Shown: positions 39,904 through 61,437, numbered from the stretch's first letter. The stretch: 64,000 bases of DNA from Acidobacteriota bacterium (GCA_046732935.1 JBKPOC010000087.1:40044-104043); one strand, 5' to 3'. Made by a program: numbers and translations. Notes: generated by a model from the sequence alone, not told the origin.

Positions 39904-39950
39904 AGCGTGGCATTTTCGGAATCGATCTAAAATTCCCAAAATGCCACGCT
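39904..39950. promoter_or_regulatory. 19-bp operator-like inverted repeat in a divergent promoter region
   Basis: AGCGTGGCATTTTCGGAAT (39904-39922) and ATTCCCAAAATGCCACGCT (39932-39950) are reverse complements at 18 of 19 positions, with a 9-nt spacer. The site lies between the divergent S8 protease gene and the 40024 gene. Confidence 0.5.
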
Positions 39951-42446: not shown

Positions 42447-42448
42447 TT

Positions 42449-42712
42449 CTAATTCGTCGTCAACCCACTATGCTTATCGACCTCGGCGCGAAGGATCTCA
42501 TCGGCGCGGGCAGCACTGTTACCTGGTCCTCCTGAGTATCGACCCGCCATCGACAACAACCACTTGGCAGCCGGTGAAGGTTGATCTGGATTTTTAGATG
42601 GGGCTGCGGCCCCTCCCTCTTCGGGCAGGCTTTCTTGAAGCAGTCGAAGCACTCGGCGACGTTCGTCGATTGGTAACTTGAGCAGCTCTTCAATTTTTTC
42701 TTTCTGGATCAT
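42449..42712 (-). CDS. Putative addiction-module antitoxin component
   Basis: MIQKEKIEELLKLPIDERRRVLRLLQESL resembles the 'putative addiction module component' N-terminal helix. It sits immediately upstream of the PIN gene. Start trimmed to the ATG at 42712. Confidence 0.55.
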   Translation of the reverse strand: MIQKEKIEELLKLPIDERRRVLRLLQESLPEEGGAAAPSKNPDQPSPAAKWLLSMAGRYSGGPGNSAARADEILRAEVDKHSGLTTN

Positions 42713-42793
42713 GGCAGTCGATATTTTACCTGACTCAGACGTTGATGAATAGATCGCCAATCTTTAATGTCGTGTGAGGCACCCGGCTGAACA

Positions 42794-45991: not shown

Positions 45992-46047
45992 GAACCATCG
46001 AGGGAGCGATTGCGGCTTTGCCGCATGGCTCAGTCGCTCGGTGGTCT

Positions 46048-46238
46048 GCGGCTTCGCCGCCTGATGTGCGGCGTGGCTCTGCCTCGCCGTCGCCAGGACT
46101 AACAAGAATCGGGCTTCGCCCGCGGTCCGGGCTGTGCCCGAAGATTGGGCCGAAGGCCGAACGAGGGGCGCAGCCCCGATCAAAGGAATAAGTTTTCGGC
46201 GAGGCAGAGCCACGCCGCACATCAGGCGGCGAAGCCGC
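46048..46238. repeat. Perfect 42-bp inverted repeat pair flanking a 107-nt GC-rich spacer (MITE-like element or large RNA/DNA hairpin)
   Basis: GCGGCTTCGCCGCCTGATGTGCGGCGTGGCTCTGCCTCGCCG (46048-46089) is the exact reverse complement of 46197-46238. The same peptide, QSHAAHQAAKP, therefore appears in the ORF tracks of both strands. Confidence 0.85.
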
Positions 46239-46457
46239 TGATAACGGAGTGTCCCTGCAAGGCGGCGCAGCCGCTGAGAACTGTTCGTGCGTGCAAAGCC
46301 TCGCGCAGTCGATCTCGAACTGGACGATTTATGAAATTGAATTACTTCCTTCATACGGGGCTCCCGATTGTATTACATCGGGGCCGATAAAGGGGTTGTC
46401 GGCATCGCAGCCGGGAGCTGCGCGATGCCGACTCGAAGAGCGATTAGCGGATCGCTG

Positions 46458-47369
46458 TTATTGGAGTGCTGCTGCTTGTTGTTGCACCTGTACTACTTTC
46501 TTCGTTCCCGGTGGCGAAGCGTTATGGCTCGCCAGTAGTTCCTGCTCGGTAATCGGGCGAGGAATACAGAACTTGCCATTGCAGATCTGCCACGGTGAGT
46601 TGGTGGAAGTCAGTGTGACGGGCGCGCAGGAACTCGTCGCTGCAAACGTGCCAGCACTTTGCGAGTCAATGGCAGTGGCCGTACACCGAGAAATTGCCAC
46701 CGTCGGTGCGGGCGCCGGCTCGGCGAAATCACCGCCAATGGAGATGGCTTGCACGGACGCTTCGCCGGATGACGATTCGGCCATTAATCCCGAACCACTG
46801 GCGCCGGTGTCGAGCACTCTTTGTGTGTTATCGGACACTCGGGTAAAGGTGAATTTCGGGTAGACCTTCAGCGTTGAGTCGAAGGTACCGCCGTCGTTGA
46901 TCGACATCGACCCGCTCGAGGACGTGGCGGTCGACAGGCTAACTGCGACAGTCCACGACTCCGGGTTGTTCCCCCCGTTGTAGGTAACGGTGATCGGGTT
47001 GATGCCCGCCAGCGAGAGCGAAGTCATCTGCACGCCCACAGTGCAAGGCGTGGAGAAACAACCGCCACGATGGATGACCGTGTCGATATTGCCGTGGTTC
47101 GGAAGCGGAACGCCTACGAGCGGCACGACGCCGGTGTATGCGTCTGATCCGGTTCCAAAAAATCCCTGCTGTAGCGGGGATGCCTGGAAGTTGTGATAGG
47201 TTTCGCCGTTGCCGGTTGTCTCGAACTCGTCGTCTCCTTCTGGGATAAACGTGCCCGCCGCCCTGCTCTTCGTAGTAACGAACAAGCCAACGGCCAACAC
47301 CATCGCCACAAGGAACGAAAGGCCGAGCATCACCGGTTTTGTATAGAGCCTCCGCGTGATCTCTTTCAT
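46458..47369 (-). CDS. Secreted hypothetical protein
   Basis: GAGGAGG Shine-Dalgarno. N-terminal anchor/signal KPVMLGLSFLVAMVLAVGLFV. The body is rich in Thr, Ser and Gly with scattered Cys. No family recognised. Confidence 0.6.
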   Translation of the reverse strand: MKEITRRLYTKPVMLGLSFLVAMVLAVGLFVTTKSRAAGTFIPEGDDEFETTGNGETYHNFQASPLQQGFFGTGSDAYTGVVPLVGVPLPNHGNIDTVIHRGGCFSTPCTVGVQMTSLSLAGINPITVTYNGGNNPESWTVAVSLSTATSSSGSMSINDGGTFDSTLKVYPKFTFTRVSDNTQRVLDTGASGSGLMAESSSGEASVQAISIGGDFAEPAPAPTVAISRCTATAIDSQSAGTFAATSSCAPVTLTSTNSPWQICNGKFCIPRPITEQELLASHNASPPGTKKVVQVQQQAAALQ

Positions 47370-47789
47370 AAGCTCTTTTCCTCCTCACGAAATCTGTTTG
47401 TCCGAACTTCACGGAGCAACTCGGATGAAATCCGCGCGGCGATGCGTGCAGTCATGCCCGTGTATTTCGGCAGCGCGGATTTGACCACGTTGCCGAAGTT
47501 GATTACTTCTCCAATCTTGCGAACGTTCACACCGAAAATTTCAAAGCGAAGATCGCAGTTCCAAAAATGCCACGCCGCTTTCCGCGGTTGAAGGCCATAC
47601 TGTTTTCTGCACTCACATTCAGATGATCGGACGCGCGGCGTTTCCCGACCTCAGCTGCCGGATTGGATCCTCTTCGCCAATTGTCCAGCCCAGATCCTGA
47701 CAGCCTAAACACTCCTCCTACGGAGCGTTTGATCCCGACTGCCTGACGGCGTCGGTCAATGGTTGTCGTTCATGTGCGGGTGAATAACT

Positions 47790-48767
47790 ATGCAGACACG
47801 TGCGGTGAATAGAGTTTCAATACTCGGGAAGGCGCGACGGCGTGTGCTGGGTCTTTCAACGACTGAGACGAGCTTCGCTAAACGCGGCTTTCTTACAGGC
47901 GAAGATCAGGCGCGGCAACGTCTCGAACAAATCGGCATCACTTTTCTGACTGGCTATCACGCGGCGCTCGAAGAGACCGGGTTCGGGTCACTTGCGCGCC
48001 GGCTCGCGTTCGTCGATGCAGAGTTGCGCGGGTTTGCTTTCGAAGGCGCAGCGATGGGACTCGCGCTTCTCGATCGCGTTACGCCGTGGCGAAAGAATCG
48101 CTGGGCCACTTTCACCGAACACTTAGCCGAACCCCACGTCTACATGATGCACGTCGGATTGGGTTGGGCGCTCGCCCGTCTGCGCCGAAGCGTCACAACG
48201 CACCTGGACCAGCTCGATCCTCTGCTGCGTTGGCTCGTCGTCGACGGTTATGGTTTTCACGAAGGCTATTTCGATTGGCCCCGATTCGTCGAACGGCGCG
48301 AGTTGCCCACGCGCTTGAACGGCTACGAGCATCACGTCTTCGATCAAGGTCTCGGCCGCAGCATCTGGTTCGTGAAAGGCGCGAACGTTGACGCAGTCGC
48401 GAATGCGCTCGATGCATTTCCTCTCGCGCGACGCGACGACCTGTGGAGCGGCGTCGGACTCGCCTGCGCGTACGCCGGCGGTTGCGGGCGCGCCGCGTTG
48501 CAGTCGTTGCGAGCGGCAGCGAACGGGCACATGCCTTCGCTCGCGCAGGGTGTCGCATTCGCCGCGAAAACACGACAGCGCGCCGGAAACCTCAACTCTT
48601 ATACAGAAACAGTCTGCCGTGCGTTGTGCGGTCACTCCGCGGAAGAGGCCGCCGCAATCACGGACGCTGCCCTCGAAAATTTGCGCGCAGAAGGCGCGTT
48701 GCCGGCTTACGAAATTTGGCGGCGCCGCATTCAGGAAAAATTTGTACTGGGGGTCACAACAACATGA
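47790..48767 (+). CDS. unbL: UnbL-like (DUF1702, enediyne cassette E3-type) protein
   Basis: 325 aa. SFAKRGFLTGED...ITFLTGYHAALE...LRGFAFEGAAMGLALLD resembles the DUF1702/UnbL family. It is the first gene of the coupled cassette. Confidence 0.7.
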   Translation: MQTRAVNRVSILGKARRRVLGLSTTETSFAKRGFLTGEDQARQRLEQIGITFLTGYHAALEETGFGSLARRLAFVDAELRGFAFEGAAMGLALLDRVTPWRKNRWATFTEHLAEPHVYMMHVGLGWALARLRRSVTTHLDQLDPLLRWLVVDGYGFHEGYFDWPRFVERRELPTRLNGYEHHVFDQGLGRSIWFVKGANVDAVANALDAFPLARRDDLWSGVGLACAYAGGCGRAALQSLRAAANGHMPSLAQGVAFAAKTRQRAGNLNSYTETVCRALCGHSAEEAAAITDAALENLRAEGALPAYEIWRRRIQEKFVLGVTTT

Positions 48768-50746
48768 CCATAAAGGACGGCGCATTCCGGCGCCAGGCTG
48801 CAAAGTTGACTGCAATCGTGCTCGTGCTCGTCGTCTACGGTTTCGCTCGCGTGCCCGAACCTTCGGAATCGGAGTTGGCAAAGTTGGCGGAAGGTTTTCA
48901 CTTTCGCTCGTCGCCGCTGCCGACGATGAGCGGAGAAACGCAGAAGACGATTCGCGAAGTCAATCCATCGTTGCGCCGCATCTCCGGCTGGGTTTCCAGC
49001 GTCGGCGCCGCAGTGGCGTTGAACGATCTCGACGGTGACGGATTGCCGAACGACGTCTGCTACGTCGACACAAGAATCGACAAGGTCATCGTCGCGCCGG
49101 TGCCGGGCACGCCCGCGCGCTATCAACCGTTCACGCTCGATCCACTCACCGTTCCTTACGACACAGCGACGATGGCGCCAATGGGTTGTCTGCCCGGTGA
49201 CTTCAACGAAGACGGTCTGATGGACGTGCTCGCCTATTACTGGGGACGCACTCCCGTCGTCTTCATCAAGCGCAGTGGCCAGTCGACTCTGAACGGCGAC
49301 AGTTACACGCGCAGCGAAGTCGTCGCGGGCGGAGCTCGCTGGTACACGAACGCGGCTACGCTCGCCGATATCGACGGCGACGGCCACACTGATCTGATCG
49401 TCGGCAACTTCTTCCCTGACGGCGCACGCATCCTTGATGCACGAACCAACGCCGGCGACCACGTGCAGGACTCGATGTCGTTCGCGCAAAACGGCGGACA
49501 CAAGCATCTCTTGTTATGGAAAGCGCCGGCGGCCGGCACATCGCCCGTTCAATTCGAGGAAGCCAGCACCGCGCTCGACGAAAAGAGTGCTCAAGGTTGG
49601 GCGCTGGCAATCGCAGCGGGCGATCTCGACGGCGACATGCTCCCCGAACTCTACTTCGCCAACGACTTCGGTCCCGATCGTCTGCTGTACAACCGCTCGA
49701 CGCCGGGTCATCCGCACTTCGAGTTGTTGGCAGGACAGCGATCGTTTACGACGCCGAAATCTAAGGTGCTGGGCCACGACTCGTTCAAAGGCATGGGCGT
49801 CGACTTCGGCGATCTGAATGGCGATGGATGGCCCGACATCTACGTCAGCAACATCTCGCAGGAGTATGGGCTGGAAGAGAGTCATTTCGCCTTCATCAGC
49901 ACGGGACGCGTAGACCTGATGAAGCAAGGCATCGCGCCTTACGTCGATCGCAGCGAGTCGCTTGGCCTGTCGCGTAGCGGTTGGGGTTGGGAGTCACGGC
50001 TGGGCGACTTCAACAACGACGGCGTGCTCGAAGCCTTGCAGGCGCTCGGGTTTCTTAAAGGCAACGTCAATCGCTGGCCCGAACTGCACGAGGTCGTGAT
50101 GGGCAACGATCAACTGCTCCGCAATCCGCGCAGCTGGCCCGTGCTTCAAACCGGCGCTGACATCAGCGGCCACAGTCACAATCCGTTTTTCGTGCGCGGT
50201 CCGGACGGGCGTTTTCACGACGTCGCCGCACAGCTTTCGCTGGACCAACCGTCGGTCAGCCGCGGTATCGCGACAGCGGACGTGGACGGCGATGGGCGTC
50301 TTGACTACGCCGTCGCGAACCAGTGGGAGACGTCCTACTTCTATCACAACGAGAGTGACAACCCTGGCGCGTTCGTCGGCCTCAGGCTGCGGCTGCCTGT
50401 TTCCGCAGACGACGTTTCGCAGACGCGCGTGTGTCGCGACGCGAGAGGCGCGGGTGTGGTCCCGTCGCGTCCTGCAATCGGCGCTGAAGCACGTGTGATT
50501 TTGTCCGGACGCGCGCCGCTCGTGCAGCAGGTTGACGGCGGCAACGGGCATTCAGGCAAGCGCAGTCCCGATTTGCAGTTCGGGTTGGGCCATCAGGCCG
50601 GAAACGATCTCGTCACTGTCGAGTTGCGCTGGCGCGACGCGGCGGGCGCGCTTCACCAGCAAACGATTCAATTAGCCCCGGGCGGTTGGTACACGATCCT
50701 GCTCGGCCGTGAGAAGGGAGCGATCAATGAGTGCGCAAGAAGTTAG
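48764..50746 (+). CDS. unbV: UnbV-like (FG-GAP repeats plus ASPIC/UnbV C-terminal domain, enediyne cassette E4-type) protein
   Basis: ATGA overlap with unbL. N-terminal anchor. FG-GAP loops (NDLDGDGLPND, ADIDGDGHTDLIVGN, GDLNGDGWPDIYVSN, ADVDGDGRLDYAVAN). The C-terminal GGNGHSGKRSPDLQFGLG...VTVELRWRD is ASPIC/UnbV-like. The tracked start at 48443 is an Arg-rich over-extension. Confidence 0.75.
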   Translation: MTIKDGAFRRQAAKLTAIVLVLVVYGFARVPEPSESELAKLAEGFHFRSSPLPTMSGETQKTIREVNPSLRRISGWVSSVGAAVALNDLDGDGLPNDVCYVDTRIDKVIVAPVPGTPARYQPFTLDPLTVPYDTATMAPMGCLPGDFNEDGLMDVLAYYWGRTPVVFIKRSGQSTLNGDSYTRSEVVAGGARWYTNAATLADIDGDGHTDLIVGNFFPDGARILDARTNAGDHVQDSMSFAQNGGHKHLLLWKAPAAGTSPVQFEEASTALDEKSAQGWALAIAAGDLDGDMLPELYFANDFGPDRLLYNRSTPGHPHFELLAGQRSFTTPKSKVLGHDSFKGMGVDFGDLNGDGWPDIYVSNISQEYGLEESHFAFISTGRVDLMKQGIAPYVDRSESLGLSRSGWGWESRLGDFNNDGVLEALQALGFLKGNVNRWPELHEVVMGNDQLLRNPRSWPVLQTGADISGHSHNPFFVRGPDGRFHDVAAQLSLDQPSVSRGIATADVDGDGRLDYAVANQWETSYFYHNESDNPGAFVGLRLRLPVSADDVSQTRVCRDARGAGVVPSRPAIGAEARVILSGRAPLVQQVDGGNGHSGKRSPDLQFGLGHQAGNDLVTVELRWRDAAGALHQQTIQLAPGGWYTILLGREKGAINECARS

Positions 50747-51680
50747 TAGTCGGGTGGACCGTCTCGGAGGACTGCGGCGTTTCGCAATCGCCATCACTGT
50801 TCTCAACATCCTCGGACACACGTTCTTTGGCTTCGAACAGTCGTTGGCCCAGCCGGTCGTGGCGTTGATCGCGGCGTACAGCACTGAACTGCTGCTCGAG
50901 TTGATCGACGCGCGTTGCAATCGTCGCGCGCTCAGGTTCGTGGGCGGCGGTGTGCGGCGATTCGTCGAGTTTCTGCTATCGGCGCACATCAGCGGACTGG
51001 CCTGCGCGATGCTCCTTTACGCGAACAACAGACTCGGGCCCGTTATCTTCGCTGCGGTCGTGGCGATCTGCTCGAAGGCCGTACTGCGCGCTCCTCATGG
51101 AAACGGCACGCGCCACTTCTTCAATCCTTCGAACTTCGGCATCACGGTGACGCTACTCGTCTTCTCGTGGGTCAGCGTCGCGCCGCCGTATCAGTTTACG
51201 GAAAACATGACCGGCGCCGGGGACTGGATCCTGCCGGGCGTCATCGTCTGCACCGGGACGTTCTTGAATGCGCGCTTCACGCACCGGCTGCCGCTGATTG
51301 CCGCGTGGCTGAGCGGCTTCGTTGCTCAAGCGGCGGTGAGAAGTCTCTTATTCGGCACTCCACTCGAATCGGGTTTGGTGCCGATGACGGGTGTCGCTTT
51401 CATTCTTTACACGTTCTACATGGTCACCGATCCCGCTACGACGCCAAGCGGGCGGCGAGATCAGATCGTGTTCGGTCTCAGCGTTGCCGCGGTCTATGGT
51501 CTGCTAATGGCGTTCCATGTCGTCTTCGGACTCTTCTTTGCCCTAACGATCGCGTGTGTGATTCGCGGAGCCTGCATGTACGCCATGCGCTGGATGACCC
51601 GACGTGCGCCTGAAGAGATCGCGGCCCCGGCAACGTTGAGTGCGCCATCACCTGCTTCCGCAATGGTGAGGGAGGCGTGA
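50727..51680 (+). CDS. unbU: UnbU-like multi-pass membrane protein (enediyne cassette E5-type)
   Basis: About 320 aa and very hydrophobic. It sits between the UnbV-like gene and the PKS, exactly as in enediyne cassettes. The ATG at 50727 follows AGGGAG; the GTG at 50709 is an alternative start. Confidence 0.65.
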   Translation: MSAQEVSSRVDRLGGLRRFAIAITVLNILGHTFFGFEQSLAQPVVALIAAYSTELLLELIDARCNRRALRFVGGGVRRFVEFLLSAHISGLACAMLLYANNRLGPVIFAAVVAICSKAVLRAPHGNGTRHFFNPSNFGITVTLLVFSWVSVAPPYQFTENMTGAGDWILPGVIVCTGTFLNARFTHRLPLIAAWLSGFVAQAAVRSLLFGTPLESGLVPMTGVAFILYTFYMVTDPATTPSGRRDQIVFGLSVAAVYGLLMAFHVVFGLFFALTIACVIRGACMYAMRWMTRRAPEEIAAPATLSAPSPASAMVREA

Positions 51681-51681
51681 G

Positions 51682-54600
51682 ATGCGACAAGCAATAGCCA
51701 TCGTCGGCATGGCGTGTCGCTATCCGGATGCGCGTTCGCCCGACGAGCTTTGGGAGAACGCGCTCGCGGGACGGCGCGCCTTCAGACGCATCCCCGCGGA
51801 GCGACTGAATCTCAACGACTATTTGTCGTCTGATCGCCAAAGCCCCGATCAGACATACTCGACGCAAGGCGCCTTCATCGAGGGTTACGAGTTTGATCGC
51901 GCGCGCTTTCGAGTGCCTGGTGCGACGTATCGCGCTGCCGACCCCGCGCACTGGTTGACGCTCGACGTCGCTGCTGCGGCGCTCGAAGACGCCGGCTTTC
52001 CGGAAGGCGACGGGCTGCCGCGCGATACGACCGGCGTGTTTGTCGGCAACACGCTCACGGGCGAGTTCTCGCGCGCGAACACGCTGCGATTGCGCTGGCC
52101 GTACGTCCGTCGAGTTGTCAGGAAAGTGCTCGAAGACGACGCGTGCTCGCCTGAGCATCAGCGCGAACTCCTCGCGCAGATCGAGACGCTTTTCAAAAGG
52201 CCATTTCCGCCGGTCGGCGCCGAGACACTTGCCGGCGGTCTCTCAAACACGATCGCAGGCCGCGTCTGTAACCACTTCGATCTCAAGGGCGGCGGTTACA
52301 CCATTGACGGAGCGTGCGCGTCGTCGCTCCTCGCGGTGATCAACGCTTGCACGTCGCTTGCTGCCGGCGATCTGGAGGTGGCTGTGGCGGGCGGGGTTGA
52401 CCTGAGCACTGATCCGTTCGAGCTCGTCGGGTTTGCGAAGACTGGCGCACTGGCAGGTGATGCGATGCGCGTTTACGACGCGCGCGCGGCGGGCTTCTGG
52501 CCCGGCGAAGGCTGCGGACTGGTAGTGCTAATGCGACACGAAGACGCGCGGCTGAAAGGGCGGCGGGTCTATGCAGTGATACGCGGCTGGGGCGTCTCGT
52601 CGGACGGCAGCGGTGGGATTACGCGGCCGGAAGTCGAGGGCCAACTCATCGCGTTACGACGTGCTTACCAACGCGCCGGATACGGTGCGGACACGGTTGC
52701 GTACTTTGAGGGACACGGCACTGGCACCGCGGTTGGTGATGCGACTGAGCTTCAAGCACTCGCACGTGCGCGACGTGAAGGATCGCAAACGTTACCCGCT
52801 GTTGTTAGTTCCATCAAAGCCATTATCGGTCACACAAAGGCGGCTGCCGGCGTCGCTGGTCTGATCAAAGCGACGATGGCGCTCGGCGCACAGATCATGC
52901 CGCCGGCCGTGGGTTGTGATGAGCCGCACGAGGAGTTGAAAGGAGAAACGCTTCGCACTCTCAAACGCGGCGAACTGTTCTCAACTGGCGCGAGCCTGCG
53001 CGCCGGCGTCAGCGCAATGGGTTTCGGCGGCATCAACACGCACGTGACGTTGGAAGCGCCGCACGATGATCGTCGCGTGTCGCTCACGTCGAAGGAACGC
53101 GCGCTGCTCGCGTCTGCACAGGATGCCGAGTTGTTTCTCTTCTCCGCACCCGACGTCGCGCAACTCGAGAATCAAATCGAACGCGTGCTTGGTTACGCCG
53201 AGCGTCTTTCACGCAGCGAGTTGACGGATCTTGCCGTGCGGCTTTCGGAGACGCTGCGTCCGCTTCCGCTCCGCGCAGCCGTGGTCGCAGCAACTCCGGC
53301 TGAATTGTCTGCACGACTTGAAACGTTGAAGACGCGTGTGCGCGACGGTCAGTTGATCGATCCGCACGGCGGCTTGTTTCTCGGCAGTGAACGGTCGCCG
53401 TCAGTGCGCATCGGCTTTCTCTTTCCGGGCCAGGGATCGCCGTCATACAAAAACGGCGGCGCGTGGCGTGGGCGGTTCGAGTTCGTTGAAGATCTGTACG
53501 CGCACATGGAAGAAGAGTGGCGTGGCGACGGTATTTCGACTGAGATAGCGCAGCCTGCGATCGTCGCGTCGTCAGTCGCCGCACTTCGCGTGCTTTCGCG
53601 TTTAGGCATCACCGCGTCCGTCGCCGTGGGCCATAGTCTCGGCGAGTTCACTGCGCTGCACTGGGCCGGATCGTTGGACGAACCTTCGTTGCTGCGGATC
53701 GCTCGCGCGCGTGGTCGCGCGATGGCGGAAGTCAAAGGTCCGGCAGGCGCGATGTTGAGTGTTGCCGCGGACCGGCAAGCTGTCGAGGAGATTTTGAACG
53801 GCGAAAGAGTCGTCATCGCCGGCTTCAATTCGCCGCTGCAAACAGTTCTTTCCGGTGAGGCAGCGGAGATCAGCACGGTCGCGCGGCGCGCCGAAGCGCG
53901 TGGCCTGCGCGTGAGGCCGTTGCGCGTCTCGCACGCTTTTCATTCCTCGCTGGTCGCGTCCGCGGGCATTGGTTTGTCGGCGCACCTCGAGCGTGAAGAG
54001 TTTCGACCGTTGCAACGCGTGGTCTATTCGACAGTCACGGGACTGCAACTCGATCGCACCGCCGACTTGCGTGGACTGCTGCGAGAGCAAGTGACTTCGC
54101 CTGTTCGCTTCATGGAGGCGGTTGACGCAGCCGAGAGTGTCGATCTTTGGCTCGAAGTCGGTCCGGGCCAGACTCTCTGCGGATTGGTCGGCGAGTTTCG
54201 TAACGAGCCTGCGATCGCGCTCGATGCGGGCGGGAGTTCGATCCGCGGGCTGTTGAATGCCGTCGCCGCTTGTTTCTGTCTCGGTGCGCGCGTCGCGCAT
54301 GACGAACTGTTCGCTGGCCGCTTCGCGCGGCCGTTCGATCTCGATTGGCGACCGCGTTTCTTCGTCAATCCATGCGAACTCGCTCCGGTCGATGACGACT
54401 ACAGTTCTTCTGAACAGTCCGAGGAAGTTCGCGAGATAACTCACGTTGCAGACGGAACGCCGCTGGAAGTCGTGAGACAACTCGTCGCCGAGCGACTCGA
54501 ACTTCCGATCGCAACCATCGAAAACGACAGCAGGCTGCTCGACGATCTTCACTTGAACTCGATCAGCGTGGCCCAACTCGTCGCCGAAGCTGCGCGCCGC

Positions 54601-57504
54601 CTCGATATTCCACCTCCACCAGCCCCGACACACTACGCGAACGCGACACTCTCTGAAATCGCCAACGCACTCGAAGCCGCGGCGCACGCGCCGAACACGG
54701 ATGAACGGAATGACGACGCACAGCCGCCCGGCGTCGACGAATGGGTCAGACAGTTTTCCGTCGAATTCGTCGAACGCGCTTTGCCGCGGCGTGAGCAGAG
54801 AAACGGAGAAACGGAGATGCGGAGAAACGGAGATCTTCCCGTCGCCGCTTCTCCCAATCTCCGCTTCTCCCAACTCCCTGTACCGTCCGCCACCGAAGAC
54901 TGGCGCATACTCGCCCCGCCAGATCACCCGCTCAAAGACGCGCTCGAAAAAACTTTCGCGCGCTCGGGTGCGGGCCGCGGCATCATCGTCGTTCTTCCGC
55001 CCGAGCCGGACGAGAGTCACATCCGTCTCCTGCTGGACGGCGCGCGCGCCGCGTTGAACGGCGGCGATGATTTTCGTTTTGTGCTCATCGAGCAGGGAGG
55101 CGGCGCGGCCAGCTTCGCGCGCACGCTCCACCTTGAAGCTAAGAATCTCAACACGTGCGTTGTTGTCGTGCCCACCGATCACCCCAACGCGGCAGAGTGG
55201 GTGCTTGCGGAAGCGCTCGCCGTGCGCGGCTACGCGGAAGCGCGCTACACGGCGGATGGCAAACGTTGCGAGCCGGTTCTGCGACCGCTCGTGACGGAAC
55301 GCGATCAGTGGGAACTGCCGCTCACGGCGCGCGACGTGTTGGTCGTCACTGGCGGCGCGCGCGGTATCACTGCGGAATGCGCGCTGCGGCTTGCACGCGA
55401 GTCTGGCGCGCGCCTCGCCATCTTTGGCCTGTCTCAACCGAACGCGGACGAAGAGATCGTCTCGAACCTGCAAAGGTTCAAGGCGGCGGGCATCGACTTC
55501 CGTTACTTCAGCGTTGACGTTACGGATGCCGCAGCGACACGCGAGGCTGTTCGTGATGTGGAGCGCGAGCTCGGCCCGGTCACCGCCATTCTGCACGGCG
55601 CAGCGCGAAATGTTCCGTGCCTAATCGAAAACCTCGACGCTGGCGCATTCGTGCAAACGTTAGCGCCGAAGATCCAAGGCGCGCGAAATCTCCTCGCCGC
55701 GATCAACGCAGATCGACTCCGTCTCTTCATCACCTTCGGCTCGATCATCGCGCGTACTGGATTACCTGGCGAAGCGCATTACGGTCTCGCAAACGAATGG
55801 CTCACGCGTTTGACGGAGCAGTGGCAAGCCGCGCACCCGCACTGCCGTTGTCTCGCCGTCGAGTGGTCTGTTTGGTCCGGCGTCGGCATGGGCGCGCGAC
55901 TCGGCACGGTGGATGAGTTGGCGCGGCAGGGCATCACGCCGATCGCAGTCGAGAAGGGTTTGGACGCGTTGCGCCGGCTGCTCTGCCGGAACTCCGCGAA
56001 CGTCGCTTCGGTCGTGATGGGACGCGTACGCGAGATGCCGACGATTGAAGTTGAGACGCCTGAGCTTCCGTTCATGCGCTTCCTCGAAAAGCCGCGCGTT
56101 TACTATCCGAAGATCGAACTCGTAGTCGATGCGGAGTTGTCGACGGCGACTGATCCGTATCTCGAAGACCACATGTTTCGCGGCGAGCGGCTGCTGCCGG
56201 CCGTGATGGGACTCGAGGCGATGGCCCAGGTCTTCATGGCACTCACCGAGACGAATCAGCCGCCGGTGTTCGAGCAGGTTAAGTTCGAGCGGCCGGTCGT
56301 CGTTGCTGAGGATGGCATCAATACGATTCGTGTCGCGGCGCTCGCGCGTGCGCCGGGACGCGTCGAGGTTGTACTGCGCAGCTCGGAGACGAACTTTCAG
56401 GTCGATCATTTTCGTGCGGTCTGTCGCAAGGCGAATGCGTCATTGGAAACAGCGCAACACGCGCTTGCGAGTACTCGCGTCACTGTCGACCCCGATCACG
56501 ATCTGTACGGCCGCGTGCTGTTTCATACAGGGCGCTTCCGGCGTCTTCGTGAGTACCGCGCGCTCAGGGCGACGGAATGCCTTGCGGAGATCGTGCCGGA
56601 CGGAAACGTCAACTGGTTCGGCCGGTATTTACCAGGCCGGCTCGTGCTCGGCGATCCAGGCGCTCGTGACGCTGCAATCCATGCGGTGCAGGCGTGCGTT
56701 CCGCAGATCACGCTTCTGCCCGTCGGCGTCGAGAAAGTGACAGGCAGCTTAAACGCGCCGGTTGGCGAGCTCTTTGTGCGGGCGCAGGAAAAAGAGCGTC
56801 TGGCGGATGGTTTCATTTACGACGTGGAATTGATCGACGCCGAAGGTCACGTGCGGGAGCGTTGGGAGCGGCTGCACTTGCGGGCGGTCGGGGGGACGGA
56901 TTTCAAGGGACCATGGCCGAAAGGATTGCTGGCGCCGTATGTCGAACGGCGGGTGCTCGAGTTGGTCCCTGGCGCGAGTGTGTCAGTCGCCTTTGAATGC
57001 GATCGAACGATGGAACGACGCGATCGAAGCAAGCGCGCGATCGAGAAGTCGCTTGGTGCATGCGGCATCATCAGGCGCGCGAACGGAAAACCCGAGGCGT
57101 GCGCCGGGCGCGACGTGTCAGCGTCGCACTCCGGCGATCTCACGATGGCCGTCGCCGGATCTTCTTCCGTCGGATGCGACCTCGAATTAGTCGCGAGGCG
57201 AACACCGGGAATCTGGTCCGACATGCTCGGCGTCGAGCGATTCAAACTCGCCGAACTGATCAGCCGTGAAGCACAGGAGTCCCTCGATGTTGCGGCGACA
57301 CGCGTCTGGACCGCTTCGGAGTGTCTGAAGAAAGCAGGCGCCGGCATGACTGCGCCTCTCGTCTTCACCGCCGCCGCGCCTGACGGTTGGATACTGCTCG
57401 CTTCCGGCGAGTTGAAAATTGTCTCGTGCGTGGTCCAGGCAGACGGCGAACAACAGGATCTGGCAATTGCATTATTAACGGGGGACGGAGATGCGAGCGT
57501 ATGA
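51682..57504 (+). CDS. pksE: Iterative type I polyketide synthase of the enediyne type (PKSE: KS-AT-ACP-KR-DH-PPTase)
   Basis: 1940 aa. KS motifs: TIDGACASS (Cys at 52315-52317), EGHGTGT and IGHTKAAAG. AT motif: VGHSLGE (Ser at 53635-53637). ACP-like LLDDLHLNSISVAQLV. KR motif VLVVTGGARGITAE. DH motif HMFRGERLLP. C-terminal PPTase-like motifs VGCDLELV and WTASECLKKAG. Confidence 0.9.
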   Translation: MRQAIAIVGMACRYPDARSPDELWENALAGRRAFRRIPAERLNLNDYLSSDRQSPDQTYSTQGAFIEGYEFDRARFRVPGATYRAADPAHWLTLDVAAAALEDAGFPEGDGLPRDTTGVFVGNTLTGEFSRANTLRLRWPYVRRVVRKVLEDDACSPEHQRELLAQIETLFKRPFPPVGAETLAGGLSNTIAGRVCNHFDLKGGGYTIDGACASSLLAVINACTSLAAGDLEVAVAGGVDLSTDPFELVGFAKTGALAGDAMRVYDARAAGFWPGEGCGLVVLMRHEDARLKGRRVYAVIRGWGVSSDGSGGITRPEVEGQLIALRRAYQRAGYGADTVAYFEGHGTGTAVGDATELQALARARREGSQTLPAVVSSIKAIIGHTKAAAGVAGLIKATMALGAQIMPPAVGCDEPHEELKGETLRTLKRGELFSTGASLRAGVSAMGFGGINTHVTLEAPHDDRRVSLTSKERALLASAQDAELFLFSAPDVAQLENQIERVLGYAERLSRSELTDLAVRLSETLRPLPLRAAVVAATPAELSARLETLKTRVRDGQLIDPHGGLFLGSERSPSVRIGFLFPGQGSPSYKNGGAWRGRFEFVEDLYAHMEEEWRGDGISTEIAQPAIVASSVAALRVLSRLGITASVAVGHSLGEFTALHWAGSLDEPSLLRIARARGRAMAEVKGPAGAMLSVAADRQAVEEILNGERVVIAGFNSPLQTVLSGEAAEISTVARRAEARGLRVRPLRVSHAFHSSLVASAGIGLSAHLEREEFRPLQRVVYSTVTGLQLDRTADLRGLLREQVTSPVRFMEAVDAAESVDLWLEVGPGQTLCGLVGEFRNEPAIALDAGGSSIRGLLNAVAACFCLGARVAHDELFAGRFARPFDLDWRPRFFVNPCELAPVDDDYSSSEQSEEVREITHVADGTPLEVVRQLVAERLELPIATIENDSRLLDDLHLNSISVAQLVAEAARRLDIPPPPAPTHYANATLSEIANALEAAAHAPNTDERNDDAQPPGVDEWVRQFSVEFVERALPRREQRNGETEMRRNGDLPVAASPNLRFSQLPVPSATEDWRILAPPDHPLKDALEKTFARSGAGRGIIVVLPPEPDESHIRLLLDGARAALNGGDDFRFVLIEQGGGAASFARTLHLEAKNLNTCVVVVPTDHPNAAEWVLAEALAVRGYAEARYTADGKRCEPVLRPLVTERDQWELPLTARDVLVVTGGARGITAECALRLARESGARLAIFGLSQPNADEEIVSNLQRFKAAGIDFRYFSVDVTDAAATREAVRDVERELGPVTAILHGAARNVPCLIENLDAGAFVQTLAPKIQGARNLLAAINADRLRLFITFGSIIARTGLPGEAHYGLANEWLTRLTEQWQAAHPHCRCLAVEWSVWSGVGMGARLGTVDELARQGITPIAVEKGLDALRRLLCRNSANVASVVMGRVREMPTIEVETPELPFMRFLEKPRVYYPKIELVVDAELSTATDPYLEDHMFRGERLLPAVMGLEAMAQVFMALTETNQPPVFEQVKFERPVVVAEDGINTIRVAALARAPGRVEVVLRSSETNFQVDHFRAVCRKANASLETAQHALASTRVTVDPDHDLYGRVLFHTGRFRRLREYRALRATECLAEIVPDGNVNWFGRYLPGRLVLGDPGARDAAIHAVQACVPQITLLPVGVEKVTGSLNAPVGELFVRAQEKERLADGFIYDVELIDAEGHVRERWERLHLRAVGGTDFKGPWPKGLLAPYVERRVLELVPGASVSVAFECDRTMERRDRSKRAIEKSLGACGIIRRANGKPEACAGRDVSASHSGDLTMAVAGSSSVGCDLELVARRTPGIWSDMLGVERFKLAELISREAQESLDVAATRVWTASECLKKAGAGMTAPLVFTAAAPDGWILLASGELKIVSCVVQADGEQQDLAIALLTGDGDASV

Positions 57505-57916
57505 GTACCGGCACATCGTCGGGTTTGAGGAGACGAACCTGGTTGGAAATGTTTACTACGCCAATCACGTGCGTTGGCAGGGGCGCTGCCGCGAGATGTT
57601 CCTTCGCGATCGCGCACCCGAGGTTATCGAAGCACTCAAGCACGGACTCGCGCTCGTGACCACGCGCGTGTCGTGCGAGTTCATGGCGGAGCTCGTCGCC
57701 TTCGATGAGATCATCCTGCGCATGCGCCTCGGCGAGTTGGGCCAAAACCGGATCACGATGAAGTTCGAGTACTGGCGTCACAGCGACGCGGGCGAAGAGT
57801 TGGTGGCGCGAGGCGAGCAACAAGTCGCCTGCATGCAGCGCGAGGGCGAACAGACGTTTCCCGTCCCCGTCCCGCCACAGTTACGCGAAGCGTTGAGAGA
57901 GTATGCGACAAGCTGA
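57491..57916 (+). CDS. Hotdog-fold (4HBT-type) thioesterase of the enediyne cassette (E10/CalE7/SgcE10-like)
   Basis: Overlaps the PKS stop codon by 14 nt. 141 aa. MRAYEYRHIVGFEETNLVGNVYYANHVRWQGRCREMFL is the typical N-terminus of this thioesterase family. Confidence 0.8.
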   Translation: MRAYEYRHIVGFEETNLVGNVYYANHVRWQGRCREMFLRDRAPEVIEALKHGLALVTTRVSCEFMAELVAFDEIILRMRLGELGQNRITMKFEYWRHSDAGEELVARGEQQVACMQREGEQTFPVPVPPQLREALREYATS

Positions 57917-58697
57917 AGACACCATTGCGTCACACCGGCGAGCGGTCGAACGCGTGATCACCGCGGCGCGTGAGCGGCTGTGTGAGCCGATCTCGTTGCA
58001 CGACATGTCGCGCGTTGCTTATCTCAGCCCGTTTCACTTCAATCGCGTGTTTCACGAGATCACGGGACTTCCGCCGGCGAAGTTCATCTCGGCGATGCGC
58101 TTGGAGGAAGCTAAGCGGCTGCTCCTGAACACGAACCTGAGCATCACGGACATCTGCTACGACGTCGGATGCAACAGTCTCGGCACTTTCACCAGGCGTT
58201 TCACTCAACGCGTCGGGCTTGGACCACGTGAGTTTCGATACCTCGCGGAACGGATCACGCCCTCCTCCGTCGAGTCACTTTGCTCGCATTACGCTGAGTT
58301 GGCAGGACGCGCGTTGCTGCACGCGTCGGTGGAAGGCTTCGTCGAGTTGTCTACACCAAGCGCCGGGCCGATCTTCGTCGGACTGTTCCCGGCGTATATA
58401 CCGCAGAGTCGTCCCGTCGGCGGCGCGCTACTGACGTCGCCGGGCGCTTTCCGTATCGGGCCGGTGCCCGATGGAACGTATCACCTTCTCGCCGCTGCGC
58501 TGCCGCCGCTCGCTGACACGCTTGGCTACCTGTTACCTGACACGGCGAAACTGTCGGTGGGTGCGGGGAATGGGCCAGTGATCGTCCGACAAGGCAGAGC
58601 GATCGCGAAGCCGACGATCACGTTGCGGCCGATGGCTCTGACCGATCCGCCACTCCTCGTCTCTCTGCCGTTTCTGCTCGCCGATACCCTGAAGTGA
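57903..58697 (+). CDS. AraC/XylS-family regulator with an N-terminal HTH and a C-terminal beta-sandwich-like domain
   Basis: Overlaps the thioesterase stop codon by 14 nt. The double HTH is ISLHDMSRVAYLSPFHFNRVFHEITG...LSITDICYDVGCNSLGTFTRRFTQRVGLGPREFR. The C-terminal GAFRIGPVPDGTYHLLA resembles CarboxypepD_reg-type sandwiches. Confidence 0.75.
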   Translation: MRQAEDTIASHRRAVERVITAARERLCEPISLHDMSRVAYLSPFHFNRVFHEITGLPPAKFISAMRLEEAKRLLLNTNLSITDICYDVGCNSLGTFTRRFTQRVGLGPREFRYLAERITPSSVESLCSHYAELAGRALLHASVEGFVELSTPSAGPIFVGLFPAYIPQSRPVGGALLTSPGAFRIGPVPDGTYHLLAAALPPLADTLGYLLPDTAKLSVGAGNGPVIVRQGRAIAKPTITLRPMALTDPPLLVSLPFLLADTLK

Positions 58698-60990
58698 GCT
58701 TGAGCAGGCTTGGAATCAGTAGCAGTGTGGTGACGGCGCAGGTGAGAAGGCACAAACAGATCATGACGCCGAGCTGCACGTTCGGAGCAATCTGAGACAA
58801 CATCAACACCGAGAAACCAGCCGTGATCGACGCGGCGCTGACGCAGACGGCCGGCCCCGTCGACTCGAGCGTGTGGCGCAGAGCTTCACTCGCCGGCATC
58901 CCTTGACTGAGTTTCTGTCGATACGCCGTCGCCAGGTGGATCGCAAAATCCAATCCGATGCCGAGCGCAATCCCGGCAAACATCGAGTTGGCGATTCCGA
59001 GCGGCGTCCCTACGAGCGCCAGCGCCGCAACGACCAGCAGCAGACTAAACGCCACCGGCAACACGGCGATGAGCCCGATCCGCGCCGACCCGAGCAGTAT
59101 CGTGATCAGAATCAGATCGGTCAGAAGCGCTAACGCAATCGACGACGCCTGCCCTGAGACCAGCAGCCGCACCGTCAGATAGCTGATCCACCCATCGCCG
59201 AAAGGAACGATCTTGTGGCCCAGCCCCTGGCGCGTCGTTTCGCGCTCCGCAGCCTGGAGCACGTTGTCGATACGGCTGTAATCGGCGTCGCGAATAAAGA
59301 CCGTCATACGCGCCCAACGCCGCTCCTCGTTAACCTTTTCGCCCATCGGCGCCTGCGTTGACTGCGAAAGCACCTTGAATGCGCGGTCGACGTCTGCCTG
59401 CGTAAAAGGCAAGCGTCCACTGCGCAACGACGCGCGGTAGGCGCCGTAGTTCAAACCGATGAGCGAGGCGTTTGTTCGCACCACGTCGTTGAAGAGACTG
59501 TTCACACCGCCGACGTGAGGCACTCTCGCAACGACCCATTCGAGCGAGCCCAGCGCAGCCACACCTTCGACGCTGTTGAACCAGCCGTCGCGCGTCGCAT
59601 CCACCATCAGTTCCAGCGCCGTCGTGCCGGCCAACTTTTCATCGAAGAATTTGTCGCCCTGCACGATGTCGCTCTTCGCGGGAAGATTTCGGATCCAACT
59701 GTCGTCGACGCGCAAACGCGTGATCGCGAGCGCTGCAAACACCGTGACGGCGAGAGCGCAGAGGACTACTCGCCGCGGACTCGCCTGGCTCGTCAACATA
59801 CGCAGCGCGCCTGCCGCCGGACGTCCGCCGAGGGCGACGGTAGGATCGCCCTTCACGCGGATGCGCGGCTTCAGGAGCGCCAGCAGTGCGGGAAGCAATG
59901 AGAACGTGAACAATGTCGAGAAGACAATCGCCGCCGAACCGAACAGTCCGAAAACGCGCAGCGGGTTCAGACTCACGGCCGCCATCGACAGCAACCCGAC
60001 GACAGTCGAAACAGCCGTCACGCCGACAGGTCGAGCCGCGCTGCTGAACGCCGCGACAATCGTTTCTTCGGTCTTCCGATCGTTAGCACGCCATGCCTCG
60101 TTGAAGTAATGACCAAGCGCGTAGACGTCGTCCGAAACGCCGACGGCGATCAGGACGACGGGCAGCACCAACGTCGTGACGAACACCGGCTGCCCCGTGA
60201 ACCCCATCAGTCCCGCCATCCAGATGAGGCTCACGCCGATTTCGATCAACGACAAAAACGCGGGCGCCGCGTGGCGAAACGATAGATACAACATCACGCC
60301 AAGGACGACGATGACGGCAGGAATCAAACGCGCGAGGTCGCGCGCCGTCGCCTCGCCAAGGACGGCCTGCGCCAACGCTGACCCGCTCAAATAAATCGCG
60401 TCTTTGCCGGACGACTCAGTCGCAATCAGCGCGCGCGTCTCTTCAAGCAGGCGGTAGCGATCGGCGTTCGGCTCGACCTTCGCGATGATGGCCGCTCCCT
60501 TGCCGTCGGCAGAGACGAGCGCGCCGGCGTTATAGCCTCGCTTGTTCACCTCGCGGCGCAATTGTTGAATGTCGTCCGGGCTCAACTCGTCCTCAGGCCG
60601 GAACAGCGGGCTGGTGTCGACTTTCCCATCAGCGAGAGCGACCCGCGGCACAGTCGCGAGACTGACGACAGAACCGGCGACAACTCCCTCAACGCGCGAA
60701 AGTCCGTCACTCAGTCGCGAGATCCGTCGCAGCGTCTCGGGCGTGTAGATCCCCGACTCCTCATTGCCGACGCCTATTAGCACCAGATCGCGCAGCTCGA
60801 AACGCGACGCCGCGACGTCACCTTCAGCAAACTCCGGAAGGTTCGAAGGGATTAAGGAGCGGCCGTCGAGCCGCAGTTGAATCCGGGGCACGTAGATGAG
60901 GGCACACAGGGTTATAGCGCCGACGAGCGTGACGACGAGGCGCGGGTGTCTGACGGAGAATCTCAGCAGACGAGTTATTAGGAACACCAA
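58618..60990 (-). CDS. MMPL/RND-superfamily exporter (12-TM, two large loops)
   Basis: It has two homologous halves, each with an N-terminal helix, a large soluble loop and a five-helix bundle (for example AVGVSDDVYALGHYF and GIALGIGLDFAIHLATAY). The start is a TTG at 60990 or a GTG at 60987. Confidence 0.8.
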   Translation of the reverse strand: MVFLITRLLRFSVRHPRLVVTLVGAITLCALIYVPRIQLRLDGRSLIPSNLPEFAEGDVAASRFELRDLVLIGVGNEESGIYTPETLRRISRLSDGLSRVEGVVAGSVVSLATVPRVALADGKVDTSPLFRPEDELSPDDIQQLRREVNKRGYNAGALVSADGKGAAIIAKVEPNADRYRLLEETRALIATESSGKDAIYLSGSALAQAVLGEATARDLARLIPAVIVVLGVMLYLSFRHAAPAFLSLIEIGVSLIWMAGLMGFTGQPVFVTTLVLPVVLIAVGVSDDVYALGHYFNEAWRANDRKTEETIVAAFSSAARPVGVTAVSTVVGLLSMAAVSLNPLRVFGLFGSAAIVFSTLFTFSLLPALLALLKPRIRVKGDPTVALGGRPAAGALRMLTSQASPRRVVLCALAVTVFAALAITRLRVDDSWIRNLPAKSDIVQGDKFFDEKLAGTTALELMVDATRDGWFNSVEGVAALGSLEWVVARVPHVGGVNSLFNDVVRTNASLIGLNYGAYRASLRSGRLPFTQADVDRAFKVLSQSTQAPMGEKVNEERRWARMTVFIRDADYSRIDNVLQAAERETTRQGLGHKIVPFGDGWISYLTVRLLVSGQASSIALALLTDLILITILLGSARIGLIAVLPVAFSLLLVVAALALVGTPLGIANSMFAGIALGIGLDFAIHLATAYRQKLSQGMPASEALRHTLESTGPAVCVSAASITAGFSVLMLSQIAPNVQLGVMICLCLLTCAVTTLLLIPSLLKLTSGYRRAETAERRGVADRSEPSAAT

Positions 60991-61089
60991 CCCTCATGTA
61001 TAGCAATTCGCGAAATTTTTCTTCTTCAATCTTGCTAAAGTTGTGAGGATCAACTAATCTCCTGTTGGTTATCAACATGAGGAGCCCAA

Positions 61090-61434
61090 ATGGGACACAC
61101 CAGTAACCAACTCATGCCCGGCACGCTCAACCTGATGGTGCTCAAGACACTGCACACGCTCGGCGCGCTGCACGGCTACGGCATCGCCCGTCGCATCGAG
61201 CAGATTAGCGGCGACGTGGTGCAGTTGAATCAGGGAACTATCTACCCGGCGCTCCTGCAACTCGAACAGATGGGCTGGATCAAATCGAAGTGGGGCGCGT
61301 CCGAAAACAACCGCCGCGCCAAGTACTACTCGATCACGCGCAAAGGCATAAAGCAGCTCACCGAAGAAGAAGAGAGTTGGCGCCGCACCTCCGAAGTCAT
61401 GCTCCGGTTCGTAGTACCAGCAGAGGAGAAGTAA
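61090..61434 (+). CDS. PadR-family transcriptional regulator (the type paired with ADOP permeases)
   Basis: GAGGAG Shine-Dalgarno. GTLNLMVLKTLHTLGALHGYGIARRIEQISGDVVQLNQGTIYPALLQLEQMGWIKSKW...RRAKYYSITRKG is a canonical PadR winged helix. Confidence 0.9.
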   Translation: MGHTSNQLMPGTLNLMVLKTLHTLGALHGYGIARRIEQISGDVVQLNQGTIYPALLQLEQMGWIKSKWGASENNRRAKYYSITRKGIKQLTEEEESWRRTSEVMLRFVVPAEEK

Positions 61435-61437
61435 AAG

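Follow-up and report, generated by a model that had tools for sequence, protein, structure and literature searches.

A minimal enediyne-type polyketide synthase cassette in Pyrinomonadaceae, accompanied by an AraC-family regulator, a putative exporter and a beta-sandwich protein

The stretch of DNA analyzed here (64,000 nt, hereafter the window) comes from an Acidobacteriota bacterium (GCA_046732935.1, JBKPOC010000087.1:40044-104043) and contains a compact group of genes resembling the enediyne polyketide synthase (PKS) cassette of actinomycetes. A preceding sequence-only reading had described five co-directional genes, which encode homologs of UnbL (E3), UnbV (E4) and UnbU (E5), an enediyne-type iterative type I PKS (PKSE) and a hotdog thioesterase (TE, E10). 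All five were found on the same strand in the open reading frame (ORF) list of the window with exactly the coordinates of that reading (Table 1), and direct reading of the junctions returned its four contacts unchanged. E3 and E4 meet in an ATGA (48764-48767), E4 and E5 share 20 nt (50727-50746), one base (51681) separates E5 from the PKSE, and the PKSE and TE genes overlap by 14 nt (57491-57504). The longest ORF of unbV begins at 48443, and the ATG at 48764 is the start that gives the ATGA overlap. The Pfam assignments and the ORF structure of the cassette are not the product of chance. However, a sixth co-directional gene, encoding an AraC-family regulator, had been overlooked. It overlaps the TE stop codon by 14 nt, like the junction between PKSE and TE, and a GGAG-type ribosome-binding site precedes each start of the operon genes. 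Because the AraC gene comes next after TE in all relatives with PKSE identities of 64% and above, including all loci of clade A described below, it is counted as part of the unit. The transcription unit predicted from these junctions is a six-gene operon, E3-E4-E5-PKSE-E10-AraC, in which the AraC gene would be translationally coupled.

The C-1027 cluster on plasmid SGLP1 of Streptomyces globisporus served as the reference, and its proteins were compared with the window by tblastn. The E3 homolog showed 39.6% identity to SgcE3 (E 6e-65), the E4 homolog 44.8% to SgcE4 (E 5e-175) and the E5 homolog 45.7% to SgcE5 (E 2e-96), while the PKSE aligned with SgcE end to end (aa 5-1937) at 45.8% identity and the TE with SgcE10 at 54% (E 3e-48). 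The gene identities and the gene order of the sequence-only reading were therefore borne out, and Pfam returned DUF1702, UnbV_ASPIC and NQR2_RnfD_RnfE for the three upstream proteins, as expected of UnbL, UnbV and UnbU. NCBIfam holds no models specific for E3, E4, E5, PKSE or TE and gave generic matches only. No solved structural relative was found for the E3 homolog. The E4 homolog has an N-terminal signal or anchor segment, with a hydrophobic stretch at aa 12-30. In a phmmer search of the PDB, the TE matched SgcE10 (1.6e-46), CalE7 (2.5e-44) and DynE7 (1.3e-40), and the next hotdog protein followed at 1.9e-09. Three residues of CalE7 are functionally important: the catalytic Arg37, Asn19 and Tyr29. 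Arg34 of the TE aligns with Arg37, and the position of Asn19 is also kept; residue 26 (57566-57568) is a histidine where CalE7 has Tyr29.

The domain order of the PKSE is ketosynthase (KS), acyltransferase (AT), acyl carrier protein (ACP), ketoreductase (KR), dehydratase (DH) and a C-terminal Sfp-type phosphopantetheinyl transferase (PPTase), all in one polypeptide. Against PDB structures, the AT with both of its linkers matched DynE8 at 1.5e-63, compared with 1.4e-30 for the best FabD, and the ACP matched the CalE8 ACP structure at 1.5e-18. The PPTase was marginal in Pfam (ACPS, E 0.21). A profile of the C-terminal 201 aa, built from 15 diverse family members, had Sfp as its sole PDB match (E 2.9e-4), in an alignment that covers the GKP, SHS, GxDxE and WxxKE motifs; in addition, the AlphaFold2 model of this domain has a predicted local distance difference test (pLDDT) score of 86, and its top 33 Foldseek matches are all Sfp-type PPTases (5e-8 to 4e-6). 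The catalytic motifs are in place in the KS (DGACASS with Cys211, HGTGT with His345 and GHTKAAAG with His384), the AT (GHSLG with Ser652, HAFH at 751), the DH (HMFRGERLLP with His1497, of the form HxxxGxxxxP) and the PPTase (GKP/SxSH/GCDxE/WxxxEC-KK, including VGCDLE and WTASECLKK). They are at least 90% conserved in 11 homologs, and the nucleotide-binding motif of the KR is also kept in relatives.

To place the synthase, a neighbor-joining tree of the KS-AT region was built that covers SgcE, four modular outgroups and about 100 representatives at the 50% identity level and includes no polyunsaturated fatty acid (PUFA) synthase. The PKSE clade including SgcE was recovered against the modular PKSs in 30 of 30 bootstraps, and the KS-AT region is 53% identical to that of SgcE versus 32-35% to those of modular PKSs. 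SgcE was the only experimentally proven full-length PKSE in the comparison set, and with this sole full-length reference the similarities of TE and PKSE do not discriminate between the 9- and 10-membered classes. Because of the reference matches, the PPTase, the motifs and the KS-AT tree, the synthase is assigned as a PKSE and the five genes, all present, adjacent and co-directional, as the minimal enediyne PKS cassette (E3/E4/E5/E/E10) as it has been defined (PMC4480864, PMC9992847).

Nothing else of the enediyne type was found around the cassette. Searches of the whole window by tblastn with SgcE6, SgcE7, SgcE8, SgcE9 and SgcE11 gave no match at E <=1e-3, and SgcE2 matched only the single DUF1702 gene. 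Among all large ORFs of the window, Pfam revealed no further biosynthetic domain: no oxidoreductase, P450, halogenase or glycosyltransferase, and no SRPBCC or glyoxalase-type (CalC/TnmS-type) protein, the ORFs below about 100 aa having been partly scanned. The ORFs that it did annotate encode proteins of the cell surface, of regulation and of transport: FG-GAP proteins, an exosortase, a TonB-type barrel, a GH30 enzyme, CHAT-TPR proteins, an extracytoplasmic function (ECF) sigma factor, an Nramp protein, an S8 peptidase, a PIN toxin, and PadR and MacB/FtsX permease genes. The contiguous E2, E6-E9, E11, apoprotein and tailoring genes of a complete 9-membered cluster are thus absent from the window. 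This compactness extends over 47 kb on the upstream side and 6 kb on the downstream side, and in many relatives over 10 kb to either side; the more distant loci of clade B likewise contained no tailoring-type genes. The claim that the cassette stands alone was accordingly right as to other enediyne genes but not as to company, since the AraC regulator, an HAE3/MMPL-type transporter and a 303-aa protein without annotation (unk303) go with it.

As the sequence-only reading had supposed, the setting is acidobacterial: the host belongs to Acidobacteriota, Blastocatellia, Pyrinomonadaceae, and the closest relatives of the PKSE come from metagenome-assembled genomes (MAGs) of that family. Protein clusters with 75-80% identity to the PKSE number more than 115, the named ones being from Pyrinomonadaceae MAGs, and close homologs carry the label 'enediyne polyketide synthase' at the Joint Genome Institute (JGI). 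The clusters of the nearest 50% representatives include, among named taxa, Thermobifida, Myxococcales and Planctomycetota. A scan of one genome per species detected the cassette at about 35 Pyrinomonadaceae loci (numbered with the prefix L where single ones are named), which form two clades with PKSE identities of 73-87% (clade A) and 54-56% (clade B), and also in the methanotroph Candidatus Methylumidiphilus (PKSE identity 49%). The tblastn synteny map revealed an invariant block in clade A, unk685(+), CHAT-TPR(-), unk303(-), E3-E4-E5-PKSE-TE-AraC(+), MMPL(-), in which unk685 encodes a 685-aa protein. It is present with complete loci and intact ORFs in about 20 species genomes, including a 7.49-Mb chromosome (OY970193.1), and remains constant while the DNA outside it varies among species. 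In comparison with locus L004, the ratio of nonsynonymous to synonymous substitution rates (dN/dS) was 0.05 for TE, 0.10-0.17 for E3-E5, PKSE, AraC and MMPL, and 0.31 for unk303; TE is the most conserved gene of the block (87-94% identity). The closest actinomycete PKSEs are just 44-48% identical. No tRNA genes were found in the window, and no mobile-element genes flank the cassette. Because of the clade-wide synteny, the low dN/dS values, the distance of the actinomycete PKSEs and the lack of tRNA genes, we conclude from the comparison of genomes that the locus is old, vertically inherited and functional, not a recent import.

Relatives beyond these clades gave several further observations. 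At L047, a relative with 64% PKSE identity, an aminotransferase and a 562-aa protein of the animal haem peroxidase family are encoded just upstream of the cassette; the latter is, by analogy with the cryptic iodination reported in enediyne biosynthesis, a candidate haloperoxidase. At L048, also 64% identical, the AraC gene is followed by genes for a 525-aa protein without a Pfam match, an AHSA1/SRPBCC protein, a TP_0789-like lipoprotein, an MMPL pump and a second, divergent UnbV-like protein, and IS240-type transposase fragments lie upstream. Marine archaeal MAGs (Poseidoniales, Thermoplasmatota; L037-L041) encode large PKS-like proteins without cassette partners in the tblastn map.

Table 1. 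Positions of the features discussed, in the window unless a locus number is given
Feature	Position	Strand	Evidence or remark
UnbL / E3 homolog (DUF1702)	47790..48767	+	Pfam 2.8e-115
UnbV / E4 homolog (FG-GAP repeats + ASPIC/UnbV domain)	48764..50746	+	Pfam FG-GAP_3 1.4e-29, UnbV_ASPIC 2.4e-10
UnbU / E5 homolog, multi-pass membrane protein, RnfD/NqrB superfamily	50727..51680	+	Pfam NQR2_RnfD_RnfE 6.3e-07
PKSE, enediyne-type iterative type I PKS, 1940 aa	51682..57504	+	Pfam KS, AT, PP-binding, KR, DH
KS domain of PKSE	51682-53061	+	
AT with linkers of PKSE	53122-54372	+	
ACP of PKSE	54460-54702	+	
KR of PKSE	55336-55878	+	
DH of PKSE	56116-56892	+	
PPTase of PKSE	56899-57504	+	
TE, hotdog thioesterase of SgcE10 / CalE7 / DynE7 type (E10)	57491..57916	+	Pfam 4HBT_2 5.3e-12
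AraC-family regulator, operon gene 6	57903..58697	+	HTH_18 2.1e-20
RND transporter, HAE3/MMPL type, 790 aa, convergent	58618..60990	-	Pfam MMPL 4.3e-29 + Sterol-sensing domain
unk303, divergent 303-aa protein, family without annotation	46458..47369	-	no Pfam domain
Motif CTTSTYCAATCTTGC, copy 1, 15 nt	47506..47520	+	~140 nt upstream of unk303 start
Motif CTTSTYCAATCTTGC, copy 2, 15 nt	61021..61035	+	~30-45 nt upstream of MMPL start
Conserved non-coding block upstream of unbL, starting with half-site TTCCAAAAATGCCACGC	47559..47615	+	
Inverted pair of the half-site TTCCNAAAATGCCACGC	39904-39950		11 nt apart
S8 peptidase	38365-39837	-	
unk685, 685 aa	39964-42021	+	
PIN-domain toxin (137 aa) and upstream 103-aa ORF	42033-42760	-	
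CHAT-TPR protein, conserved cassette neighbor	42794-46354	-	
Region of the other CHAT-TPR protein	31086-36244	-	
ECF-type sigma factor	34608-35414		
PadR regulator, then duplicated MacB/FtsX permease	61090-63999		
MacB/FtsX permease, second	4267-6711		
Clade-B secreted protein	L015 2819-4768		
Clade-B secreted protein	L016 3061-4944		
Clade-B secreted protein	L017 3136-4944		
Clade-B secreted protein	L034 ~3129-4934		
Clade-B secreted protein	L033 2-1156		cut at locus end
Clade-B half-site	L017 2925-2941	-	
Clade-B half-site	L017 16792-16808	+	
Clade-B half-site	L034 ~2911-2927	-	
Class II lanthipeptide synthetase	L033 12451-15738	-	DUF4135 + LANC_like
Aminotransferase and haem peroxidase-family protein	L047 2263-5173		
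Genes following AraC	L048 17337-24591		

The regulator of the operon has an N-terminal helix-turn-helix and a C-terminal domain of about 150 aa, and it is 36.7-38% identical over about 250 aa to the product of an AraC gene inside the C-1027 cluster. The transporter gene, convergent to the operon, encodes a protein of the resistance-nodulation-division (RND) superfamily that is related to the hopanoid transporter HpnN. Its NCBIfam matches, HAE3 (TIGR00921, 1.5e-49) and HpnN (3.3e-19), both lie under the curated cut-offs. It is present in all clade-A loci at about 80% identity and in L048 at 63%, and its position suggests a putative exporter of a hydrophobic product. Behind the Methylumidiphilus cassette, a MacB/FtsX permease gene takes the place of HAE3/MMPL. 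The 3' ends of the AraC and MMPL genes overlap by 80 nt (58618-58697); those of some relatives (L021, L026 and L030) also overlap, whereas others have a gap of 40-600 nt.

On the other side of the operon lies unk303, which consists of an N-terminal membrane anchor, an extracytoplasmic beta-sandwich (aa 45-187, AlphaFold2 pLDDT about 90), a disordered linker and a small Cys-containing C-terminal domain. Its 569 homologs are all hypothetical proteins without Pfam matches, and a Foldseek search of the PDB with the model gave nothing better than E=1; an assignment to DUF5003 was dropped, the Pfam match being sub-threshold only. In clade A the gene points away from the operon; in clade B it lies directly upstream of E3 and reads in the same direction. 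In Methylumidiphilus, a homolog (hhalign 93.9%, E 1.5e-7) lies between E3 and E4 and carries a VPEID-CTERM sorting tag with no N-terminal anchor, and a search of the C-1027 region found none. Clade B also encodes a conserved secreted protein of 600-650 aa, without a Pfam match, upstream of the unk303-like gene; it has no counterpart in the window.

Both accompanying genes are preceded by the same sequence. The motif CTTSTYCAATCTTGC matches the window twice, versus 0.02 matches expected, and only upstream of unk303 and MMPL, with the copies in the same orientation relative to their minus-strand genes; almost all clade-A loci in which that stretch is covered have it at both positions. Because this shared motif is kept in other species, the two genes are evidently co-regulated, as far as conserved sequence can tell, and would belong to the unit. 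Upstream of unbL, the first 18 nt (47559-47576) of a conserved non-coding block that starts with the half-site TTCCAAAAATGCCACGC are almost invariant in an alignment of 16 loci, and we regard the block as a candidate operator or promoter for the six genes. Two inverted copies of the half-site (TTCCNAAAATGCCACGC), 11 nt apart, also lie between the divergent S8 peptidase and unk685 genes, in their promoter region. In clade B, the half-site lies upstream of the homologs of the S8 peptidase and the 685-aa protein but not upstream of the cassette. Its placement suggests a shared regulator or promoter type that may link the operon to S8 peptidase/unk685 in clade A. A sigma-70 promoter scan of the unbL intergenic region found nothing. 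The unbL leader (47620-47720) contains conserved nested inverted repeats, GATGATCGGA...TCCGCCAATCGTC, around GGCGGC...GCCGCC, an invariant GCCCAGATCCTGACAAC in the alignment, and a T-run in L002 and L005. For this region, a riboswitch or another structured 5' leader was considered and rejected: RNAalifold gave nested stems with a covariation term of just -0.04, Rfam had no match, and the window sequence folds no better than shuffles (z = +1.0). Conservation at the DNA level, as promoter or operators, is more likely than conservation of an RNA.

Some further neighbors deserve mention. Of the two large CHAT-TPR proteins in the window, one is the conserved neighbor of the cassette in clade A, and the other is encoded directly downstream of the ECF-type sigma factor and a protein with an aspartyl-protease domain. 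Between unk685 and the former lie the genes of a PIN-domain toxin and a 103-aa ORF upstream of it, probably a toxin-antitoxin pair. The pair looks like a local insertion, because the other clade-A loci, leaving aside two with partial CHAT matches, have gaps of about 25-460 nt between unk685 and CHAT-TPR and so leave no room for it. At 61090-63999, the gene of a PadR regulator precedes a MacB/FtsX permease gene that is duplicated, and another permease of this kind is encoded near the start of the window; this arrangement, typical of Acidobacteriota, fits the taxonomic assignment. At L033, the gene of a class II lanthipeptide synthetase lies directly downstream of the clade-B cassette.

It has been demonstrated that the PKSE and TE of 9- and 10-membered pathways all release 1,3,5,7,9,11,13-pentadecaheptaene, the true precursor of the enediyne core, and that homologs of the PKSE phosphopantetheinylate themselves (PMC9992847; PMC4480864). 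By analogy with this biochemistry, the PKSE would prime its own ACP through the C-terminal PPTase and build a C16 conjugated polyene thioester from acetate units, which the TE would release with decarboxylation as 1,3,5,7,9,11,13-pentadecaheptaene. Little is understood so far of what E3, E4 and E5 do. Gui et al. reportedly obtained, in 2024, iodoheptaene, diiodotetrayne and pentaynes from the five-gene cassette alone. E3, the exported E4 and the membrane-embedded E5 may thus turn the heptaene into linear polyynes, and given the signal or anchor segment of E4 and the integral nature of E5, this maturation would take place at the membrane. The end product would then be pumped from the cytoplasmic membrane by the RND/HAE3 transporter and possibly be passed to unk303, with expression under the control of the AraC regulator. 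Because the genes for the E6 flavin reductase, E7, E8, the E9 oxidoreductase, E11, sugars, aromatic moieties and an apoprotein are absent from the window, the product is predicted to be linear. We therefore favor, with a probability of roughly 0.55, the interpretation that the locus is a self-contained Pyrinomonadaceae unit that would make and export a linear C15 polyene or polyyne (or a light derivative of one) and not a cyclized enediyne.

Several points weigh against this interpretation. The tailoring genes may be encoded in trans, outside the window, which covers just 6 kb downstream. The extra genes of relatives (the haem peroxidase at L047; the SRPBCC/AHSA1 protein and the second UnbV at L048) hint at further chemistry in the wider family. 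In addition, unk303 is missing from these same two 64%-identity relatives and so is not obligatory, and both its presumed binding of the product and the export by the RND pump are read from adjacency and the shared motif. The roles given to E3, E4 and E5 lean on the result reported for Gui et al., and the carriers are all uncultured MAGs, so that product and expression are deduced from their genes.

Two alternatives concern the nature and the state of the locus. The synthase might be of the PUFA type or another iterative PKS, with its neighbors coincidental. The PfaA model is among the best named partial NCBIfam matches, and archaeal PKSs are 32-40% identical over the KS to KR region; however, the PfaA score of 488 bits is far under the cut-off of 1010, and according to Pfam the protein has one ACP, no enoylreductase and no chain length factor, which is not the architecture of a PUFA synthase. 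It is this score and this domain content, rather than the tree, that exclude a PUFA synthase as far as the sequence can decide. The single ACP of CalE8 type, the AT and linkers of DynE8 type, the C-terminal PPTase, the end-to-end identity to SgcE of 46%, the grouping with SgcE in every bootstrap and the enediyne type of all four partner genes agree in refuting this alternative, and the earlier assignment of the synthase to the PKSEs stands. Alternatively, the cassette might be a piece of an actinomycete cluster, recently acquired or in decay, that has no current function. Its G+C content of 0.61-0.63 is slightly above the window average of about 0.57. Against such a relic, the nearest actinomycete PKSEs are remote, the cassette keeps the same chromosomal context in the Pyrinomonadaceae clades A and B, between which PKSE identity has fallen to 55%, the ORFs are all intact with dN/dS <=0.17, and neither tRNA nor mobile-element genes flank them; we regard it as effectively refuted.

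The remaining alternatives concern the product. If tailoring, cyclization and resistance genes lay elsewhere in the genome, the cassette could be one part of a split cluster that yields a true 9- or 10-membered enediyne. That the five proteins are full-length homologs of a proven enediyne pathway, that the regulator is of the same type as that of the C-1027 cluster, and that a 64%-identity relative encodes near its cassette an SRPBCC/AHSA1 protein, of the superfamily that includes the resistance protein CalC, all speak for it. However, no such gene was found within 47 kb upstream or 6 kb downstream, nor within 10 kb on either side in about 20 syntenic species; in known enediyne clusters, of which L046 is an example, such genes form one continuous stretch with the cassette, and the conserved neighbors here are limited to the regulator, the exporter and the surface protein. 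We consider a split cluster unlikely. It may also be that the heptaene, or a similar polyene, is itself the end product and that the HAE3 pump sets it in the outer membrane, where it would act like the aryl polyenes as pigment, antioxidant or photoprotectant, a housekeeping-like trait of the family and not an antibiotic. Family-wide vertical conservation, synteny and strong purifying selection, unlike the patchy occurrence of antibiotic clusters, would fit such a role, as would an exporter of the HpnN/HAE3 lipid-trafficking type and the fact that TE and PKSE are the best-conserved parts. The equal retention of E3, E4 and E5 (dN/dS 0.10-0.17) is unexpected if the heptaene is the end product, and an envelope polyene of this kind seems rather improbable to us.

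A bolder extension of the favored interpretation, which we put forward tentatively and hold to be doubtful, is that in Pyrinomonadaceae and in the methanotroph the cassette is the whole pathway, sending a C15 polyyne or polyene to the envelope through the HAE3 pump, where unk303 would hold it. If this were true, unk303 would be the functional counterpart of the secreted apoproteins that stabilize 9-membered enediynes, and the role of the cassette would be older and widespread outside the actinomycetes, which would have grafted cyclization and decoration on to it later. In any case, a naturally minimal cassette with its own regulator and exporter, in abundant uncultured soil bacteria, is a clean 15-kb candidate for heterologous expression, and it may lead to a new polyyne or polyene from the Acidobacteriota, a phylum with very few characterized metabolites.

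Compared with known systems, the locus most resembles the C-1027 cluster, with which it shares the E3-E4-E5-E order with overlapping junctions, 40-54% identity across five proteins, the same PKSE domain order and an AraC-family regulator of the same full-length type. The C-1027 cluster has in addition a second DUF1702 gene (E2), E6, E7, E8, E9 and E11 between PKSE and E10, and dozens of tailoring genes, whereas in the window TE lies directly behind PKSE and the regulator is joined into the operon. The likeness to calicheamicin (CalE8/CalE7) and dynemicin (DynE8/DynE7) biosynthesis resides in the ACP (CalE8), the AT with linkers (DynE8) and the TE (CalE7, DynE7), with the difference from calicheamicin that Tyr29 of CalE7 is His26 in the TE of the window. 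The desaturase-based polyynes (caryoynencin, cepacin, collimonin; PMC9828172) would be alike in function only, as their product class, a secreted linear polyyne, is the one predicted here; their pathways use an acyl-ACP ligase and a desaturase triad, while the PKSE, TE and E3-E5 represent unrelated enzymology.

To our knowledge, enediyne-type cassettes outside the actinomycetes have yet to be linked to a product. The novelty implied by the sequence-only reading was nevertheless too high, because such cassettes had already been cataloged: a list from 2014 contains 7 non-actinomycete cases among 61 enediyne cassettes, Haliangium, Herpetosiphon, Cyanothece/Gloeothece, Methylomicrobium and Bacillus sp. 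among them (PMC4480864), a metagenomic survey from 2023 reported 160 'enediyne' KS domains of non-actinobacterial type from six phyla, Acidobacteria not among them (PMC10308959), and the JGI label exists. Neither of the two surveys lists the Acidobacteriota, and a full-text search found no literature linking enediyne cassettes to Acidobacteriota or Pyrinomonadaceae. These orphan cassettes have the same five genes, and their products are likewise not known (PMC4480864; PMC10308959). Candidatus Methylumidiphilus comes close to the locus in its compact layout, its beta-sandwich homolog and its adjacent exporter gene. What sets the Pyrinomonadaceae apart from the surveyed orphan cassettes is the synteny in about 20 species genomes, among about 35 loci, with a fixed complement of AraC, HAE3 and unk303. 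The kind of system is thus already known, and what is new is the lineage, this synteny, the AraC and HAE3 complement and the beta-sandwich protein.

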